This document shows, in pieces, positions 1 through 4,534 of a stretch of 4,534 bases of DNA (position 1 is the first letter of the stretch; every line of letters starts with the position of its first letter). The DNA is taken from IMG/VR virus record IMGVR_UViG_2778261058_000008, positions 1 through 4,534 of that record; one strand, written 5' to 3'. The stretch is from a virus (taxonomy: Duplodnaviria > Heunggongvirae > Uroviricota > Caudoviricetes). The position numbers were made by a program, and so were the translations under genes. The notes below the pieces were generated by a model. That model did not search any database. It had not been told where the DNA came from and was given only the letters and a program-made list of their open reading frames with translations.

Positions 1-2
1 GT

Positions 3-30
3 TTGCGGGAAAAGGAGAGTTAAGTAGAAT
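3..30 (+). promoter_or_regulatory. Candidate sigma70 promoter for the hok mRNA
   Basis: -35-like TTGCGG (3-8), 16-nt spacer, -10 TAGAAT (25-30). Predicted start near 37-39 sits just upstream of the conserved 5' hairpin and gives a ~415-nt transcript ending at the 432-453 terminator, the size expected for a full-length hok mRNA. Window edge truncates the upstream context. Confidence 0.35.
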
Positions 31-43
31 TGCTGCGGGTGCT

Positions 44-60
44 TGAGGCTATCTGCCTCA
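44..60 (+). promoter_or_regulatory. 5' stem-loop of the hok mRNA (tac-like element)
   Basis: TGAGGC (44-49) pairs with GCCTCA (55-60) around a 5-nt loop. The surrounding GCTTGAGGCTATCTGCCTCA closely matches the 5' end of the plasmid R1 hok mRNA as I recall it (GCUUGAGGCUUUCUGCCUCA). Confidence 0.4.
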
Positions 61-94
61 GGCATGAACACCAAAAGGCAGATAGAGAAAAGCC

Positions 95-173
95 CCAGTT
101 AACATTACGCGTCCTGCAAGACGCTTAACATTAATCTGAGGCCCAATCTATGTCTCACAAATGTAGGTTAGCC
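95..173 (-). ncRNA. Candidate Sok-like antisense RNA (type I antitoxin); boundaries approximate
   Basis: Placed by analogy to hok/sok: antisense to the mok-like initiation region. Minus strand has weak promoter candidates (TTGCCT-17-TAACCT, or a TAAGAG -10 that is conserved with my recollection of R1) and a hairpin GCGTC-loop-GACGC (complement of 109-124) followed by a U-rich stretch. Start and end cannot be fixed from sequence alone. Confidence 0.3.
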
Positions 174-362
174 TCTTACGTGCCGAAAGGCAAGGAGAAG
201 CAGGCTATGAAGCAGCAAAAGGCGATGTTAATCGCCCTGATCGTCATCTGTTTAACCGTCATAGTGACGGCACTGGTAACGAGGAAAGACCTCTGCGAGG
301 TACGAATCCGAACCGGCCAGACGGAGGTCGCTGTCTTCGTAGACTACGAATCTAGAGAGTAA
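150..362 (+). CDS. mok-equivalent reading frame, here in frame with hok (70 codons, would give an N-terminally extended Hok)
   Basis: ATG at 150 with GAGG (138-141) 8 nt upstream. Flanking CTATGTCT and AGCCTCTTAC match the mok start region of R1 as I recall it. In R1 mok is offset +1 from hok; here the mok-ATG to hok-ATG distance is 57 nt, so the frames coincide. Confidence 0.3.
   Translation: MSHKCRLASYVPKGKEKQAMKQQKAMLIALIVICLTVIVTALVTRKDLCEVRIRTGQTEVAVFVDYESRE
207..362 (+). CDS. hokD: Hok/Gef-family type I toxin, 51 aa (small membrane peptide)
   Basis: Translation MKQQKAMLIALIVICLTVIVTALVTRKDLCEVRIRTGQTEVAVFVDYESRE: single hydrophobic helix, conserved LTRK..LCE.R motif of Hok proteins, near-identical over most of its length to HokD/RelF of E. 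coli K-12 as I recall it. SD AAGGAG (192-197) 9 nt before the ATG. Gene symbol is by similarity and position, not verified. Confidence 0.85.
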   Translation: MKQQKAMLIALIVICLTVIVTALVTRKDLCEVRIRTGQTEVAVFVDYESRE

Positions 363-371
363 GAGAGACCA

Positions 372-393
372 GGCGGGAGAGTAATCTCCCGCC
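372..393 (+). promoter_or_regulatory. 3' stem-loop of the hok mRNA (fbi-like element)
   Basis: 9-bp stem GGCGGGAGA (372-380) / TCTCCCGCC (385-393) closed by a GUAA (GNRA) tetraloop, 10 nt after the hok stop. Assignment as the fold-back element is by analogy to hok mRNAs. Confidence 0.4.
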
Positions 394-431
394 ACCTCTG
401 ATGTGTCGGCATCCTCAACGCACCCGCGCTT

Positions 432-453
432 AACCCGCTTCGGCGGGTTTTTT
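432..453 (+). terminator. Intrinsic terminator ending the hok transcript
   Basis: Stem AACCCGC / GCGGGTT with a UUCG tetraloop (439-442), followed by six T (448-453). Confidence 0.7.
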
Positions 454-528
454 GTTTTACGTATTCTGGTTTACAATCCACAGGCCAGCCTGAACAACTG
501 GCACCTGCTGCGCCAGCAGAGAAAACAG

Positions 529-801
529 ATGGCGCACAATACCAAATTACACAATTCTGATACCGTTCGTGCCAGCAGGCACGGGCGGCGCTCTCACGCA
601 TTCAAATATGACTGGTATCAGCACGATCCCTGCACTGAAGAACAGGCCGAATGGCTGATTCAGAACTACCGCAGACGTGGGTATGAGTTTAAGAAAGCCC
701 TCAACCTCGATTATCGTCACTGGATAATCTACGTCAGACTCCCTTATTCCGAACGCCCACCGCGTCCGTCCCGCACATTCCAGCAACGCATCTGGAGGTA
801 A
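529..801 (+). CDS. Hypothetical small phage protein, 90 aa, at the position Rem occupies in Qin
   Basis: ATG at 529 (weak SD GAGAAA); stop TAA 799-801 lies 1 nt before the GTG of the next gene, so the two look coupled. The longer track ORF from 403 would start inside the hok terminator and is not favoured. No recognisable motif; function unknown. Confidence 0.5.
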   Translation: MAHNTKLHNSDTVRASRHGRRSHAFKYDWYQHDPCTEEQAEWLIQNYRRRGYEFKKALNLDYRHWIIYVRLPYSERPPRPSRTFQQRIWR

Positions 802-802
802 C

Positions 803-1852
803 GTGCGGGTATTGCTTCGACCTGTTCCGGTACCGGAACTCGGGCTGGTGGTCCTTAAGCCTGGTCGTGAATCCATGCAGGTATTTCATAACCCTCGAGT
901 GCTGGTGGAACCGGAACCGAAAAGCATGCGCGGTCTGCCGTCCGGAGTCGTTCCTGCCATTCGCCAGCCGCTGGCGGAAGACAAAACATTGCTGCCGTTT
1001 TTCAGTAACGAACGGGTGATTCGTGCTGCTGGCGGCGCTGGTGCACTTTCTGACTGGCTGTTGCGTCATGTCAAATCCTGCCAGTGGCCTCATGGCGACT
1101 ATCACCACAGCGAAACCGTCATACATCGTTACGGTACCGGCGCGATGGTGTTGTGCTGGCACTGCGACAACCAGCTGCGTGACCAGACTTCCGAATCACT
1201 CGGGCAACTTGCTCATCAAAACCTGTCAGCATGGATGACTGACGTCATCCGTCACGCAATGAATGGCACACAGGAGCGGGAATTATCGCTGGCTGAATTA
1301 TCCTGGTGGGCGGTCTGCAATCAGGTAGCGGACGCATTACCGGAGGCAGTATTACGTCGTTCGCTGGGATTGCGTGCGGAAAAAATCCGCTCAATGTACC
1401 GTGAAAGCGACATCGTACCGGGAGAGCAGACCGCCACCAGCATACTGAAGCAGCGCACAAAAAATCTTGCGCCGTTGCCTCACGTCCACCAGCAACAGAA
1501 CGCACCACAGGAAAAGACGGTGGTCAGCATTGCCGTAGATCCGGAGTCTCCGGAATCTTTCATGAAGCGACCTAAACGTCGCCGTTGGGTAAATGAGAAA
1601 TACACGCGCTGGGTGAAGACACAGCCGTGTGCGTGTTGTGGCAAGCCAGCCGACGATCCCCATCACCTGATTGGTCATGGTCAGGGAGGGATGGGAACAA
1701 AAGCCCACGATATTTTCACGCTACCGCTGTGCCGGGAACATCACAACGAGCTTCATGCGGATCCGCTGGCGTTCGAAGAAAAGCATGGTTCCCAGGTTGA
1801 TTTAATTTTTCGTTTTCTTGATCACGCCTTTGCAACTGGCGTGCTTGGGTAA
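803..1852 (+). CDS. ydfU: DUF968-family phage protein, 349 aa, with a C-terminal Cys/His-rich nuclease-like motif
   Basis: GTG start at 803 preceded by GGAGG (794-798). Same length and gene position as YdfU of Qin in my recollection. C-terminus reads CACCGKPADDPHHLIGHG...LPLCREHHNELH (about 1630-1760), resembling a zinc-binding HNH-like signature. Confidence 0.8.
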   Translation: MRVLLRPVPVPELGLVVLKPGRESMQVFHNPRVLVEPEPKSMRGLPSGVVPAIRQPLAEDKTLLPFFSNERVIRAAGGAGALSDWLLRHVKSCQWPHGDYHHSETVIHRYGTGAMVLCWHCDNQLRDQTSESLGQLAHQNLSAWMTDVIRHAMNGTQERELSLAELSWWAVCNQVADALPEAVLRRSLGLRAEKIRSMYRESDIVPGEQTATSILKQRTKNLAPLPHVHQQQNAPQEKTVVSIAVDPESPESFMKRPKRRRWVNEKYTRWVKTQPCACCGKPADDPHHLIGHGQGGMGTKAHDIFTLPLCREHHNELHADPLAFEEKHGSQVDLIFRFLDHAFATGVLG

Positions 1853-1864
1853 AAGAGGTGACTG

Positions 1865-2224
1865 ATGCTCATAGATTTGGTTTTACCTTACCCGCCGACG
1901 GTGAACACTTACTGGCGACGCCGTGGCAGCACATATTTTATCTCGGAGGAGGGAAAGCGTTATCGTCGGGCTGTGGCGCTTATTGTTCGCCAGCAGCGGC
2001 TGAAATTAAGCCTGTCCGGAAGGCTGGCGATAAAGGTGATTGCAGAGCCACCGGATAAGCGTCGTCGCGACCTGGACAATATCCTGAAAGCACCACTGGA
2101 TGCGTTGACGCATGCGGGGTTGCTTATCGACGACGAGCAGTTTGATGAAATCAATATTGTGCGCGGTCAGGTCGTTCCTGGTGGTCGGCTGGGGATAAAA
2201 ATCACAGAGCTGGAGTGCGCATGA
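1865..2224 (+). CDS. rusA: RusA-family Holliday junction resolvase, 119 aa
   Basis: SD GAGGTG (1855-1860) then ATG 1865. Translation carries the RusA core PDKRRRDLDN...LIDDEQ; the three Asp at 69, 71 and 90 line up with the catalytic D70/D72/D91 of E. coli RusA. Confidence 0.9.
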   Translation: MLIDLVLPYPPTVNTYWRRRGSTYFISEEGKRYRRAVALIVRQQRLKLSLSGRLAIKVIAEPPDKRRRDLDNILKAPLDALTHAGLLIDDEQFDEINIVRGQVVPGGRLGIKITELECA

Positions 2225-2910
2225 ATAACCAGTATTTACAGTTTGTTCGTGAGCAGCTCATTATCGCCACCGCCGATTTGAGTGGGGCAACAAAAGGTCA
2301 GCTTGAAGCCTGGCAGGAGAATGCCATGTTCGATACAGGGCGTTACAGGCGTAAAAAAATCCGGTACCGCGATGAAGTGACCGGAAAAATGATCACGCGG
2401 GATAATCCACCAATCCCGGGGAAACAATCGCTGGCGAAGGGGACGTCAATTCCTCTGGTAAGTCAGGTTGAGTTTTCGACATCATCATGGCGACGGGCAG
2501 TTCTGTCTCTTGAAGAACATCATAAAACCTGGTTGTTGTGGTGTTACAGCGGGAGTATTTGCTGGGAGTATCAGGTCACCATAACCCGCTGGGCATGGGA
2601 AGAGTTTAAGGCTCATTCTGGCAACAGGAAAATTGCAGAGAAAACACGGGAGCGCCTGAAAAAATTAATCTGGCTGGCGGCACAGGATGTGAAGAGTGAG
2701 CTAGCTGGGCGTGAAACTTATGAATATCAGGAACTGGCATTACTGGCGGGAGTAACAACAAAAAACTGGTCCAAAACATTTACTGGTCACTGGGTTGCAA
2801 TGAAACACATTTTCCACCGGCTGGATAGTGAGGCTTTATTGTTTGTGATGAGAACACGCTCAGAACAAAAGACGGCATTTTCAAAGCAAAGTGTTGCAAA
2901 AGTAGATTAA
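2221..2910 (+). CDS. Late-gene antiterminator Q-like protein (Q82/Qin-type), 229 aa
   Basis: ATG 2221 overlaps the rusA stop (ATGA at 2221-2224) with GGAG 5 nt upstream; an in-frame GTG at 2215 is an alternative start. Gene lies directly after rusA, and its 3' end overlaps a promoter that is followed about 70 nt later by a terminator, the geometry of Q / PR' / tR'. Family call rests on context and general resemblance, not a search. Confidence 0.6.
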   Translation: MNNQYLQFVREQLIIATADLSGATKGQLEAWQENAMFDTGRYRRKKIRYRDEVTGKMITRDNPPIPGKQSLAKGTSIPLVSQVEFSTSSWRRAVLSLEEHHKTWLLWCYSGSICWEYQVTITRWAWEEFKAHSGNRKIAEKTRERLKKLIWLAAQDVKSELAGRETYEYQELALLAGVTTKNWSKTFTGHWVAMKHIFHRLDSEALLFVMRTRSEQKTAFSKQSVAKVD

Positions 2911-2922
2911 AAGGCATATATT
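2894..2922 (+). promoter_or_regulatory. PR'-like late promoter overlapping the 3' end of the Q-like gene
   Basis: -35 TTGCAA (2894-2899), 17-bp spacer, -10 TATATT (2917-2922); predicted start near 2929-2930. Confidence 0.45.
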
Positions 2923-2928
2923 TCGTGC

Positions 2929-2999
2929 AAATCTGATATTTTGCCGATTTTGTACTCGATGGCAAAGTAAGCAAATCCCGCCGCCGAGCGGGTTTTTTT
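2929..2999 (+). ncRNA. Short terminated late-promoter transcript, about 70 nt (analogous to lambda 6S RNA / StxS)
   Basis: Runs from the predicted PR'-like start to the T-tract of the tR'-like terminator; no ORF with an SD inside. Confidence 0.3.
2977..2999 (+). terminator. tR'-like intrinsic terminator
   Basis: Stem CCCGC (2977-2981) / GCGGG (2988-2992), 6-nt loop, seven T (2993-2999). Confidence 0.75.
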
Positions 3000-3014
3000 G
3001 TTGGCTTAACAGGT

Positions 3015-3020
3015 TATAAT
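3015..3020 (+). promoter_or_regulatory. Consensus -10 hexamer TATAAT; possible moron promoter for the MazF-like gene
   Basis: Perfect TATAAT 84 nt upstream of the ATG at 3104, but only a T-rich, poor -35 that overlaps the terminator T-tract. Confidence 0.3.
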
Positions 3021-3103
3021 GTATAGTGCGAAACTGCCTGTTCAGCAGAATCATTTTGTTTGTAGTGGAGTTCACAAGTCGTCATTATCAGGCAAAGAGA
3101 TTT

Positions 3104-3505
3104 ATGGTATTAAAGTATCAGCCGTCTGTTCGTTCTGTTTTAATGTGTGATTTTCGGGGAATGGTTGTTCCGGAAATAGTCAAGGTCAGGCCAGTGGTGG
3201 TCGTGTCCAGAAACAGGCACAACAATCAATTGGTAACAGTGGTACCAATAAGCACTACTGAACCGCTCCCTCGCAGAGATTGCCATCATGAGTTATCAGA
3301 AAACCCCATACCTGGTAATGAGCATATTACTTGCTGGGTAAAATGTGACATGTTGATGACGGTTTCATTGAGCCGACTGGATCGCATAAAAACCAGAACC
3401 TGGGAGGGACGAAATTATATTGTTCCTATGATTGCGGAAGATGAGTTTGAGAATATTAAACGGGCGGTATTGCACGGGATAGGGATGGCTTATCTGTATC
3501 GATAA
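3104..3505 (+). CDS. MazF/PemK/Kid-fold (CcdB/MazF superfamily) toxin-like protein, 133 aa, with no adjacent antitoxin ORF
   Basis: ATG 3104 with SD AAAGAGA (3094-3100). Translation SVLMCDFRGMVVPEIVKVRPVVVVSRNRHNNQLVTVVPISTTEP matches the MazF pattern (IWVDFDP...HRPAVVLS...CVPCTT) with the same 11-residue spacing between DF and RP; C-terminal region also aligns loosely. Could alternatively belong to an uncharacterised phage late-region family such as the YbcV/YdfO (DUF1398) type; I cannot tell them apart without a search. Confidence 0.6.
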   Translation: MVLKYQPSVRSVLMCDFRGMVVPEIVKVRPVVVVSRNRHNNQLVTVVPISTTEPLPRRDCHHELSENPIPGNEHITCWVKCDMLMTVSLSRLDRIKTRTWEGRNYIVPMIAEDEFENIKRAVLHGIGMAYLYR

Positions 3506-3529
3506 TCGAAAACGATTATCGAATTCGAT
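3499..3529. repeat. Palindrome cluster overlapping the stop codon of the MazF-like gene
   Basis: Perfect 10-bp inverted repeat TCGATAATCG (3499-3508) / CGATTATCGA (3513-3522) with an AAAA spacer, overlapping a 12-bp perfect palindrome ATCGAATTCGAT (3518-3529). Stop codon TAA is at 3503-3505. Confidence 0.7.
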
Positions 3530-3540
3530 ATGAATTTATA

Positions 3541-3569
3541 TTGACACACATAGTGTGTTGGCTGATACT
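3541..3569 (+). promoter_or_regulatory. Strong sigma70 promoter candidate with a palindrome in the spacer
   Basis: Consensus -35 TTGACA (3541-3546), 17-bp spacer, -10 GATACT (3564-3569), AT-rich tract upstream (3530-3540). Spacer holds ACACA-TAG-TGTGT (3546-3558), which looks like an operator. Confidence 0.5.
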
Positions 3570-3575
3570 GTCGCT

Positions 3576-3690
3576 GTACCCTGATGGGACTTGTGAGACT
3601 TCCGAACAGGAAGCCAGGAGTAGCGATGAGGTGATGACAAGCCTGCTGCCCCTGTGTAAAAGGCACCTTAATGGTGCCTTTGTCGTTTTT
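3576..3690 (+). ncRNA. Candidate small RNA, about 115 nt (about 148 nt if it reads to the second terminator at 3723)
   Basis: Defined by the promoter at 3541-3569 and the hairpin plus T-tract at 3659-3690. Only trivial ORFs inside: a 2-codon ORF after AGGAG (3616-3620) and a 25-codon frame from ATG 3634 that runs through the terminator stem and has no properly spaced SD. Confidence 0.3.
3659..3690 (+). terminator. Intrinsic terminator candidate
   Basis: Stem AAGGCACC / GGTGCCTT around loop TTAAT, then GTCG and five T (3686-3690). Confidence 0.5.
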
Positions 3691-3700
3691 ATCAAAAGAT

Positions 3701-3723
3701 CCCGCCACTGAGCGGGTTTTTTT
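3701..3723 (+). terminator. Intrinsic terminator; near-identical second copy of the tR'-like terminator
   Basis: Stem CCCGC (3701-3705) / GCGGG (3712-3716), 6-nt loop, seven T (3717-3723). ATCCCGCC...GAGCGGGTTTTTTTGT is shared with 2974-3002; only two loop bases differ. Confidence 0.75.
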
Positions 3724-3845
3724 GTGTCCTAAAAACGGCACAGGACGTTAAACGCGCTGGTGGTTGCGAATACGGGTCTTTCAGCTTGCTGGCTTTTTCG
3801 ACAAGAGTTATTGGTATGTCACGTTAACCAGAAAAGGAAAAAGAC

Positions 3846-4043
3846 ATGCTAAAACAGCAGGATATGACCGAAACTGCCAGAGTAGTGTTTAATGAATTGA
3901 GCGTCACCGAACCGGCGACCGTCGGGGAAATTGCGCAGAACACGTACCTTTCACGCGAACGCTGCCAGTTAATACTGACTCAGCTTGTTATGGCAGGTCT
4001 GGCAGATTATCAGTTCGGTTGTTACAGACGCCTTTCGCAGTGA
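3846..4043 (+). CDS. Small 65-aa protein, probable winged-helix/HTH DNA-binding protein
   Basis: SD AAGGA (3834-3838) 7 nt before ATG 3846. Segment ATVGEIAQNTYLSRERCQLILTQLVMAGL has helix-turn-helix character. Function is inferred, not established. Confidence 0.6.
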   Translation: MLKQQDMTETARVVFNELSVTEPATVGEIAQNTYLSRERCQLILTQLVMAGLADYQFGCYRRLSQ

Positions 4044-4193
4044 AGGTTTTTTTATTTGTGGTAATGGGCGGCTGGTGGGTGTTAGCGGCACCTGCCAGCC
4101 ATCTGCTCATGCGTTGGGGTCACAAGCAAACCTCAGGCCCATCTGCTTTGCGCAAAAGCGGTATGAGCCTATCAGAGAAGTGCTTATTGATCT

Positions 4194-4534
4194 ATGGCTA
4201 ATACTGTAAAAATATCCAGTTGTGAGTTAATCAACGCTGATTGCCTGGAATTTATCCAGACCTTACCGGAAAACTCTGTCGATCTGATAGTCACAGACCC
4301 GCCATACTTTAAAGTGAAGCCCGAGGGCTGGGATAACCAGTGGAAGGGCGACGATGATTACCTGAAATGGCTGGATCAGTGTCTGGCGCAATTCTGGCGG
4401 GTACTGAAACCTGCCGGAAGTCTCTACCTGTTCTGTGGTCATCGCCTGGCATCTGACACCGAAATCATGATGCGTCAGCGCTTTAATGTGCTGAACCACA
4501 TTATCTGGGCGAAGCCGTCCGGACGCTGGAACGG
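4194..4534 (+). CDS. N6-adenine DNA methyltransferase (N6_N4 MTase type), 5' part only; runs off the window
   Basis: Hand translation from ATG 4194 gives MANTVKISSCELINADCLEFIQTLPENSVDLIVTDPPYF... with the catalytic DPPY motif in the SVDLI-x-x-DPPY context seen in beta-class adenine methylases such as E. coli YhdJ. In-frame TGA directly upstream (4188-4190) fixes the start. No stop before the window end, which is why it is missing from the ORF track. Confidence 0.85.
   Translation, partial: MANTVKISSCELINADCLEFIQTLPENSVDLIVTDPPYFKVKPEGWDNQWKGDDDYLKWLDQCLAQFWRVLKPAGSLYLFCGHRLASDTEIMMRQRFNVLNHIIWAKPSGRWN

Follow-up and report, generated by a model that had tools for sequence, protein, structure and literature searches.

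A probable Sok antitoxin gene opposite the mok start of a complete prophage hok/mok/sok locus

Described hok/sok systems and the locus in the window

The antisense mechanism of Sok, with a duplex exposed to RNase III, has been described for the parB locus of plasmid R1 and is the source of the steps that we propose below (PMC9841398, PMC3874152). Compared with the weak hok promoter, that of R1 Sok has been called strong (PMC3874152), and chromosomal Sok RNAs are reported not to cross-talk with R1 hok (PMC9841398). A second system, hokW-mokW-sokW, is found in phage 933W and in Sp5/VT2-Sakai of Escherichia coli O157:H7. Its antisense RNA sokW is expressed from its own promoter, and mutation of that promoter turns a hokW-sokW clone toxic, unmasking HokW (PMC8621323). 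A sokW -10 mutant is without antitoxin function (PMC8621323), and sokW supplied in trans partly restores growth (Takada et al., PMC8621323). The RNA is detected on northern blots of uninduced lysogens and is gone after mitomycin C, and its action is partially dependent on RNase III and Hfq (PMC8621323). The 933W and Sp5 records annotate a 71-nt "SokW antisense RNA" together with in-frame mokW and hokW (positions 749-961 and 806-961 of locus L003 in our collection). Sok and mok were expressly left out of the analysis in a recent large survey of Hok (bioRxiv 10.1101/2025.08.07.668861).

We analyzed a 4,534-nucleotide stretch of viral DNA (IMG/VR record IMGVR_UViG_2778261058_000008, positions 1 to 4,534), referred to here as the window. 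A complete hok/mok/sok type I toxin-antitoxin locus occupies positions 37-453 of its plus strand, in the nin/Q region of a lambdoid prophage, and the minus strand of 88-158 is very probably the functional Sok-type antisense antitoxin gene of that locus. This Sok is already known: it is annotated in 933W/Sp5, its function was shown in 2021, and the window copy is one allele. A first-pass annotation of the window had placed an antisense Sok gene opposite the mok start of a type I hok locus, and family-level matches bear this out. Rfam RF01794 matches 37-212 with 121.7 bits (gathering score 59; E = 2e-28) over its full length of 1-157, and the hok toxin open reading frame (ORF), of 51 codons at 207-362 on the plus strand, matches Pfam PF01848 HOK_GEF with E = 1.1e-22 and 79.8 bits (cut-off 22).

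The elements expected of the sense transcript were read on the plus strand. A -10 box TAGAAT (25-30) and a -35-like TTTGCG/TTGCGG at the very edge of the window (2-8) would form the hok/mok mRNA promoter. The -10 box lies 6 nt upstream of G37, the position at which the start of the Rfam model and the 5' end of R1 hok mRNA (GGCGCUUGAGG) align and which, by this homology, is the probable start site. From its 5' end GGGUGCUUGAGG the full-length hok/mok mRNA would run to the intrinsic terminator (37-453), as judged from the Rfam match, the terminator and homology with hokW; a terminator scan placed the hairpin at 432-449, followed by a T-run. Within this transcript a mok-like ORF of 70 codons (150-362), taken from the ORF list, has its own Shine-Dalgarno sequence (GAGG, 138-141) and AUG (150-152). 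It starts upstream of hok and overlaps it in frame, ending at a common stop codon. A tac-like 5' element (37-48) is predicted, by RNAduplex and in the fold of the full-length mRNA, to pair with an fbi-like 3' element (CCUCAACGCACCC, 413-425) at -22.3 kcal/mol in what would be the inactive full-length form. The names tac and fbi are taken from the R1 paradigm (PMC9841398), in which the same pairing is found.

Over window positions 1-435, the locus is 95.2% identical to hokW-mokW-sokW. Both antisense RNAs are 71 nt long and overlap mok by 9 nt, with identical promoter, spacer, and -10 box, and their hairpins are identical except for one loop base. The 7 differences between the two RNAs comprise 1 in the apical loop (115) and 6 in 143-158 (143, 149, and 153-156). 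The genomic settings are not the same: the window locus lies in the nin/Q region, co-oriented with DUF968, rusA, and Q, whereas that of 933W is near the right end of the genome, by L0136/L0139.

R1 Sok shares with the window the position of the promoter between the mok and hok starts, a 17-nt spacer, a 7/12 match to the consensus, an unpaired 5' tail that covers the mok AUG, a single hairpin based on CCUC...GGGG, and a U-rich tail. Its sequence, however, has diverged from that of the window (blastn aligns only ~47 nt around 136-182), and its hairpin is shorter. It is borne on a plasmid, whereas the window locus is on a prophage, and mok and hok are out of frame in our own reading of an R1-type sequence (L006) but in frame in the window. 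The Hok proteins are ~44% identical, a figure reported for HokW versus R1 Hok (PMC8621323). In E. coli K-12, sokC/mokC/hokC (gef) has in-frame mok and hok, a 9-nt overlap of sokC with mokC, a promoter scoring 7/12, and a 3' tail identical to that of the window (GGGGCUUUUCUCUAU). The sokC hairpin is 31 nt in length versus 49 nt in the window, the -10 and -35 boxes are CACTCT and TTGACC, and the hokC locus is chromosomal and flanked by IS186. An in-frame arrangement is thus not unusual in this branch of the family, nor is it tied to loss of Sok. The earlier suggestion that in-frame mok/hok would matter more here, or that the locus is regulated differently, finds no backing, since mokW/hokW and mokC/hokC are annotated in frame as well.

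Position, promoter, and fold of the Sok RNA

Alignment carries the sokW misc_RNA (L003 687-757, minus strand) onto window positions 88-158, and by homology with it, with sokC, and with R1 Sok, the window would encode an antisense RNA of ~71 nt on the minus strand. For its ends, G158 (5') and 88 (3'), we relied on homology with annotations that are themselves possibly predictions, and the 3' end probably falls somewhere in 82-88. The span of 95-173 first assigned to the RNA was therefore roughly in the right place, but the RNA covers 88-158, and of the promoter boxes only the -10 (165-170) falls within that span; the -35 (188-193) lies outside it, though inside the 165-215 fragment that the same annotation had proposed for a promoter fusion.

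The anatomy, homology, conservation, and strand-specific structure of this Sok are matters of observation. The minus strand of the region reads ...ctccTTGCCTttcggcacgtaagaggcTAACCTacatttGTGAGACATAGATTGGGCCTCAGATTAATGTTAAGCGTCTTGCAGGACGCGTAATGTTAACTGGGGCTTTTCTCTATC, and the 71-nt RNA from 158 to 88 folds at -29.2 kcal/mol (z = -5.3), with 0 of 200 shuffled sequences folding as well. Its first 14 nt (GUGAGACAUAGAUU, 145-158) are unpaired in both the minimum-energy and the centroid folds and are complementary to the mok AUG and its flanks. This 5' tail is likely the recognition and specificity segment of the RNA; the 5' tail of R1 Sok is said to be its recognition element, in work attributed to Thisted in 1994 and to Franch in 1997. 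A single stem-loop, long and imperfect (90-144), doubles as the terminator hairpin and is followed by a U-rich 3' tail (UUUUCUCUAU, 82-91, from sequence reading). The CCUC at the base of the hairpin covers the mok Shine-Dalgarno GAGG in the RNA duplex. The parts of a Sok RNA are thus all present in that of the window: an unpaired 5' segment facing the mok initiation region, a single stem-loop, and a U-rich end.

Transcription, instability, and antitoxin activity of the window allele, like its RNA ends, would carry over from R1 Sok and sokW, and on that analogy we propose how the locus may work. A sigma-70 promoter, TTGCCT-17-TAACCT, between the mok and hok start codons would drive synthesis of the ~71-nt Sok, while full-length hok mRNA would be kept inert by a tac/fbi lock until 3' processing opens the mok initiation region. 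The Sok tail (158-145) would begin pairing at the mok AUG region of the processed mRNA. The duplex would then spread over the mok Shine-Dalgarno sequence (opposite the CCUC of Sok) and the AUG, blocking translation of mok and hence the coupled translation of hok, and would become a substrate for RNase III. Once Sok synthesis stops, the unstable Sok would decay, the stable hok mRNA would be translated, and Hok would damage the inner membrane.

The Sok promoter lies at 193-165 on the minus strand, with its -35 box TTGCCT at 188-193, its -10 box TAACCT at 165-170, a 17-nt spacer, and 6 nt from the -10 box to G158. Both boxes are identical in sokW, and the promoter sits between the mok and hok starts in the same register as in R1 Sok, sokC, sokB, sokW, and the 43 family loci described below. 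The -35 box abuts the complement of the hok Shine-Dalgarno region, with a two-base overlap. The first-pass annotation had noted a moderate minus-strand promoter and a hairpin lacking a clean T-tract. As description this is accurate: the promoter matches the consensus at 7 of 12 positions, and the hairpin (144-90) is followed by UUUU (91-88) and then CUCUAU, so that the U-tract is short, not long and clean. A promoter scan of 1-520 with a threshold of 9/12 called no promoter, and a simple terminator scan of the same region found the hok terminator only and did not call that of Sok. The terminator scan requires perfect stems, and both thresholds exclude even canonical Sok, so these scans are uninformative for Sok. 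Sites scoring 7/12 are also frequent by chance, with 140 in the 4,534-bp window (~15 per kb per strand), and the Sok promoter does not rise above chance on this score alone. The hexamers by themselves therefore cannot judge it, and the score was dropped as evidence either way.

To place the promoter among its relatives we used 47 hok loci collected from reference genomes via the Hok protein; together with the reference systems, these were reduced to 43 distinct intact Sok regions from Escherichia, Shigella, Kluyvera, Citrobacter, Pantoea, Erwinia, Kalamiella, Photorhabdus, and others (~nine genera). Their promoters score 7/12 in 34 loci, 8/12 in 8, and 6/12 in 1, a decayed copy, and the reference promoters score similarly (R1 Sok, TTGCGC-17-TATCCT, 7/12; sokW, 7/12; sokC, 7/12; sokB, 8/12). 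Spacer length is 17 nt in 38 of the loci and 18 nt in the other 5, and the -35 box is TTGCCT in 28/43 and TTGACC in 12/43. A2 and T6 of the -10 box are kept in all 43. Window positions 161-240, which include the whole Sok promoter, are identical to the sokW locus. Because the promoter is identical to that of the functional sokW and 7/12 is typical of the family, the moderate score is a family signature and not a defect, although conservation of 165-193 may partly reflect constraints on hok mRNA (the hok Shine-Dalgarno hairpin and mok codons). The 3' tail of the window (CUUUUCUCUAUC, CTTTTCTCTATC) is the commonest form among the 43 loci and the same as in sokC and sokW, and its U run is longer than that of the R1 Sok tail (CUAUCUUCUUUC, CTATCTTCTTTC). 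Hexamer-consensus scores and T-tract rules evidently underestimate real antisense RNA genes; even the R1 Sok promoter, though called strong, scores only 7/12.

We also observed on the hok strand a GNRA-type hairpin, GCC-GAAA-GGC (180-193), just upstream of the hok Shine-Dalgarno sequence and within the spacer of the Sok promoter. This small hairpin varies in a compensatory manner between genera (GCC/GGC, GACC/GGTC, and GGCC/GACC), from which we conclude that the spacer is constrained by both hok mRNA structure and promoter geometry.

The CCUC...GGGG hairpin of Sok was compared between strands without alignment. It is more stable on the Sok strand in 43/43 loci (mean, -15.5 versus -7.6 kcal/mol), a count that overstates independent support in that the loci are mutually related. 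The excess stability arises because G-U pairs sit on the Sok strand: across loci there are 2 to 4 of them on that strand and almost none on the hok strand. In the window the hairpin has -23.2 kcal/mol and 4 G-U pairs on the Sok strand, compared with -13.5 kcal/mol and 0 on the hok strand. For the whole 71-nt stretch, the plus strand folds at -17.8 kcal/mol, well short of the minus-strand value given above. Hairpin sequences vary widely among the 43 loci, with a long hokW type and short hokC, Photorhabdus, Erwinia, sokB, and R1 types. MAFFT/RNAalifold alignments show compensatory changes in 5/11 predicted pairs of the short type and 3/21 of the long type; 4 of the 14 short-hairpin sequences are out of register, which makes these counts conservative, and we gave the alignment-free comparison more weight than this covariation. 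Together these data are evidence that the hairpin structure is selected on the antisense strand.

Three other explanations were weighed against a functional Sok. The first-pass annotation had suspected Sok to be weak or missing, and it might indeed be degenerate, weak, or silent, with Hok checked mainly by tac/fbi folding of the mRNA and by in-frame mok. A promoter of only 7/12 that escapes the scan and a hairpin followed by no canonical long T-tract would fit such a state, and decayed copies do exist in the family (L015, whose -35 box is disrupted and whose hairpin contains indels). The chance that this applies to the window is small, however. Its promoter is that of the functional sokW and equals R1 Sok in score within a family spanning 6-8/12, neither its hairpin nor its tail is damaged, both having the form commonest in the family, and true Sok-less or decayed relatives (K-12 hokD, L016, L041, L046, and L047) look different.

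The hairpin and promoter-like hexamers could instead be kept solely for the folding of hok mRNA, the antisense features being a by-product. The Rfam model that matches so well is built on the sense strand, the sense strand of the 71-nt stretch also folds better than shuffled sequence (z = -3.6), and the covarying hok Shine-Dalgarno hairpin (GCC/GGC versus GACC/GGTC) occupies the Sok spacer. The strand comparison makes this account slimmer still in probability: the G-U pairs of the antisense strand would be A-C mismatches in the sense RNA in 43/43 loci, and in the Rfam sense structure CCCC and GAGGC join other helices, so that the CCUC/GGGG stem base exists only in Sok. Moreover, antisense function is experimentally established in R1 (PMC9841398) and for sokW (PMC8621323). 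Lastly, another minus-strand promoter, TTAACA-18-TAGCCT (231-202), whose score of 8/12 exceeds that of the homologous Sok promoter, could give rise to an antisense RNA of greater length, reaching over the hok start as well. Sites of 8/12 or better are common, though (35 in the window), and this one lies inside the hok coding sequence and is absent at the corresponding place in R1, hokC, and the Photorhabdus loci; the sokW, sokC, and sokB annotations put the start ~9-11 nt inside mok. We rejected this promoter as unconserved outside the hokW-like group and located in coding sequence, and we regard it as the least probable source of the RNA. A functional Sok transcribed from 193-165 is the reading that we retain.

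The hypervariable Sok 5' tail

Six of the seven differences between the window RNA and sokW fall in or beside the 5' tail, and we surveyed variation in this segment among phages. From IMG/VR, 120 phage loci (L055-L174) were retrieved by exact match to the flanks CATTAATCTGAGGC and AGGTTAGCCTCTTAC. The 22-nt segment between these flanks (143-164), which holds the Sok 5' tail and the promoter discriminator, occurs, in loci that otherwise scarcely differ, as at least seven common discrete alleles, that of the window in 16/122 sequences and that of sokW in 17/122. Among the 105 full-length phage loci, nucleotide diversity across the Sok tail segment (143-158) is 0.33, reaching 0.73 per site. Elsewhere it is 0.02 in the hairpin (88-128) and 0.03 in the promoter (180-193), both measured in parts free of the retrieval pattern, and 0.07 in the hok coding sequence. 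The mok ATG and the base at the Sok start site are invariant in the 105 loci; the mok Shine-Dalgarno sequence is invariant across the phage loci as well but lies inside the pattern used to retrieve them.

Predicted duplexes between tails and targets follow the alleles, with matching combinations at -22 to -26 kcal/mol and nonmatching ones mostly at -3 to -13 kcal/mol. The window tail is predicted to pair with its own target at -25.7 kcal/mol, compared with -8.6 kcal/mol for the window tail on the sokW target and -12.9 kcal/mol for the sokW tail on the window target. The hypervariability of the tail fits its role as recognition element and the reported lack of cross-talk between chromosomal Sok and R1 hok. 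We tentatively raise the possibility that the first ~16 nt of Sok and the mok start region form an exchangeable specificity cassette, such that each Sok neutralizes only its own hok mRNA; under that same tentative reading, the window tail would be one cassette allele, different from that of the sokW studied previously. If this were so, several hok-bearing prophages could coexist or compete in one cell without cross-protection, and the hypervariability of the recognition tail could bear on the ways in which multiple prophages escape antitoxin cross-talk or make use of it.

Tail alleles within single genomes were also compared. No duplicates were found among 24 copies in 11 genomes (9 with at least two copies), a small sample without statistical power, in which this outcome is expected by chance under random assignment (P = 0.69 for Photorhabdus; P = 0.50 for Escherichia/Shigella). 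In same-genome pairs from IMG/VR, the tails were identical in 1 of 2.

Related loci, database annotation, and prophage context

Loci that have lost Sok, or are losing it, have a recognizable appearance. The first ~128 bases of the hok coding sequence of K-12 hokD (relF, Qin prophage) are identical to those of the window, and the downstream neighbors are likewise a rem-like ORF and then DUF968 (ydfU). Homology with hokD, however, begins only at window position ~193, inside the Sok -35 box; relBE lies directly upstream, and relE-relB stand in place of the spacer and -10 box of the Sok promoter, the RNA itself, the start of mok, and the leader of hok. K-12 hokD is thus a truncated form of the window locus, of which the window carries the intact form. 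In four further loci (L016, L041, L046, and L047), the conserved core of the Sok promoter spacer is no longer present. The E. coli ECMA0423 copy (L015; 1947710-1949062) is a decaying hokW-like locus with a disrupted Sok -35 box (CTCCTGTGCC) and single-base deletions in the Sok hairpin and tail. The window shows none of the features of decay or loss seen in these six loci; on our reading its toxin is neither orphaned nor deregulated but part of an intact toxin-antitoxin module.

Near-identical E. coli-type hokW loci also turned up on short contigs (275-2995 bp) labeled Acinetobacter idrijaensis, Xanthomonas pisi, and Candidatus Scatousia MAG (L022, L025, and L054); assembly contamination is a more likely explanation of these than true occurrence.

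Of 5426 complete E. coli genomes, 4725 carry similar hok loci, and the median copy number among these is 2. Many copies of the window-type locus are named hokD in RefSeq, where annotations of near-identical loci give the Hok coding sequence and no noncoding RNA. The locus is very common in E. coli prophages, and its Sok gene, mok, and promoter can now be given base-level coordinates. We observed that Rfam RF01794, named "sok," matches the strand opposite the annotated sokC, sokB, and sokW (L005, L007, and L003). The model is 157 nt long and extends from the 5' end of hok mRNA to the hok AUG. What it models is the hok leader, whereas Sok itself corresponds to the reverse complement of the middle of the model; automatic noncoding RNA annotation from RF01794 would yield a Sok of excessive length and on the wrong strand.

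In the gene order of the prophage segment, all on the plus strand, the hok-family locus comes first and is followed by a rem-like ORF (529-801), DUF968 (803-1852), RusA (1865-2224), the Q antiterminator (2221-2910), and a PemK/MazF-like ORF (3104-3505); downstream of 3505 are a small ORF and then the start of a DNA methylase. An identical gene order is annotated in a 99%-identical prophage of enterotoxigenic E. coli (ETEC). The PemK/MazF-like ORF downstream of Q carries the toxin domain PF02452 (E = 6e-14) and is adjoined by no obvious antitoxin ORF; this type II toxin homologue either stands alone or has a partner that escaped recognition. Rfam matches to rsmX/CsrC (367-453), sR55, ceN48, and isrK fall below their gathering scores and were set aside as chance or generic terminator matches.

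Two units consisting of a promoter and terminator are found downstream of Q on the plus strand. The first (2894-2998) has TTGCAA-17-TATATT followed by a terminator at 2977-2992 with T7, overlaps the weak isrK-like match (19.5 bits, below threshold), and resembles a short leader RNA of the pR'/tR' kind. The second (3541-3722), with TTGACA-17-GATACT (10/12) and, after it, terminators at 3659-3681 and 3701-3716, may encode a prophage small RNA of ~100-150 nt. The two CCCGCC...GAGCGGG-T7 terminators downstream of Q are near-duplicates of each other.
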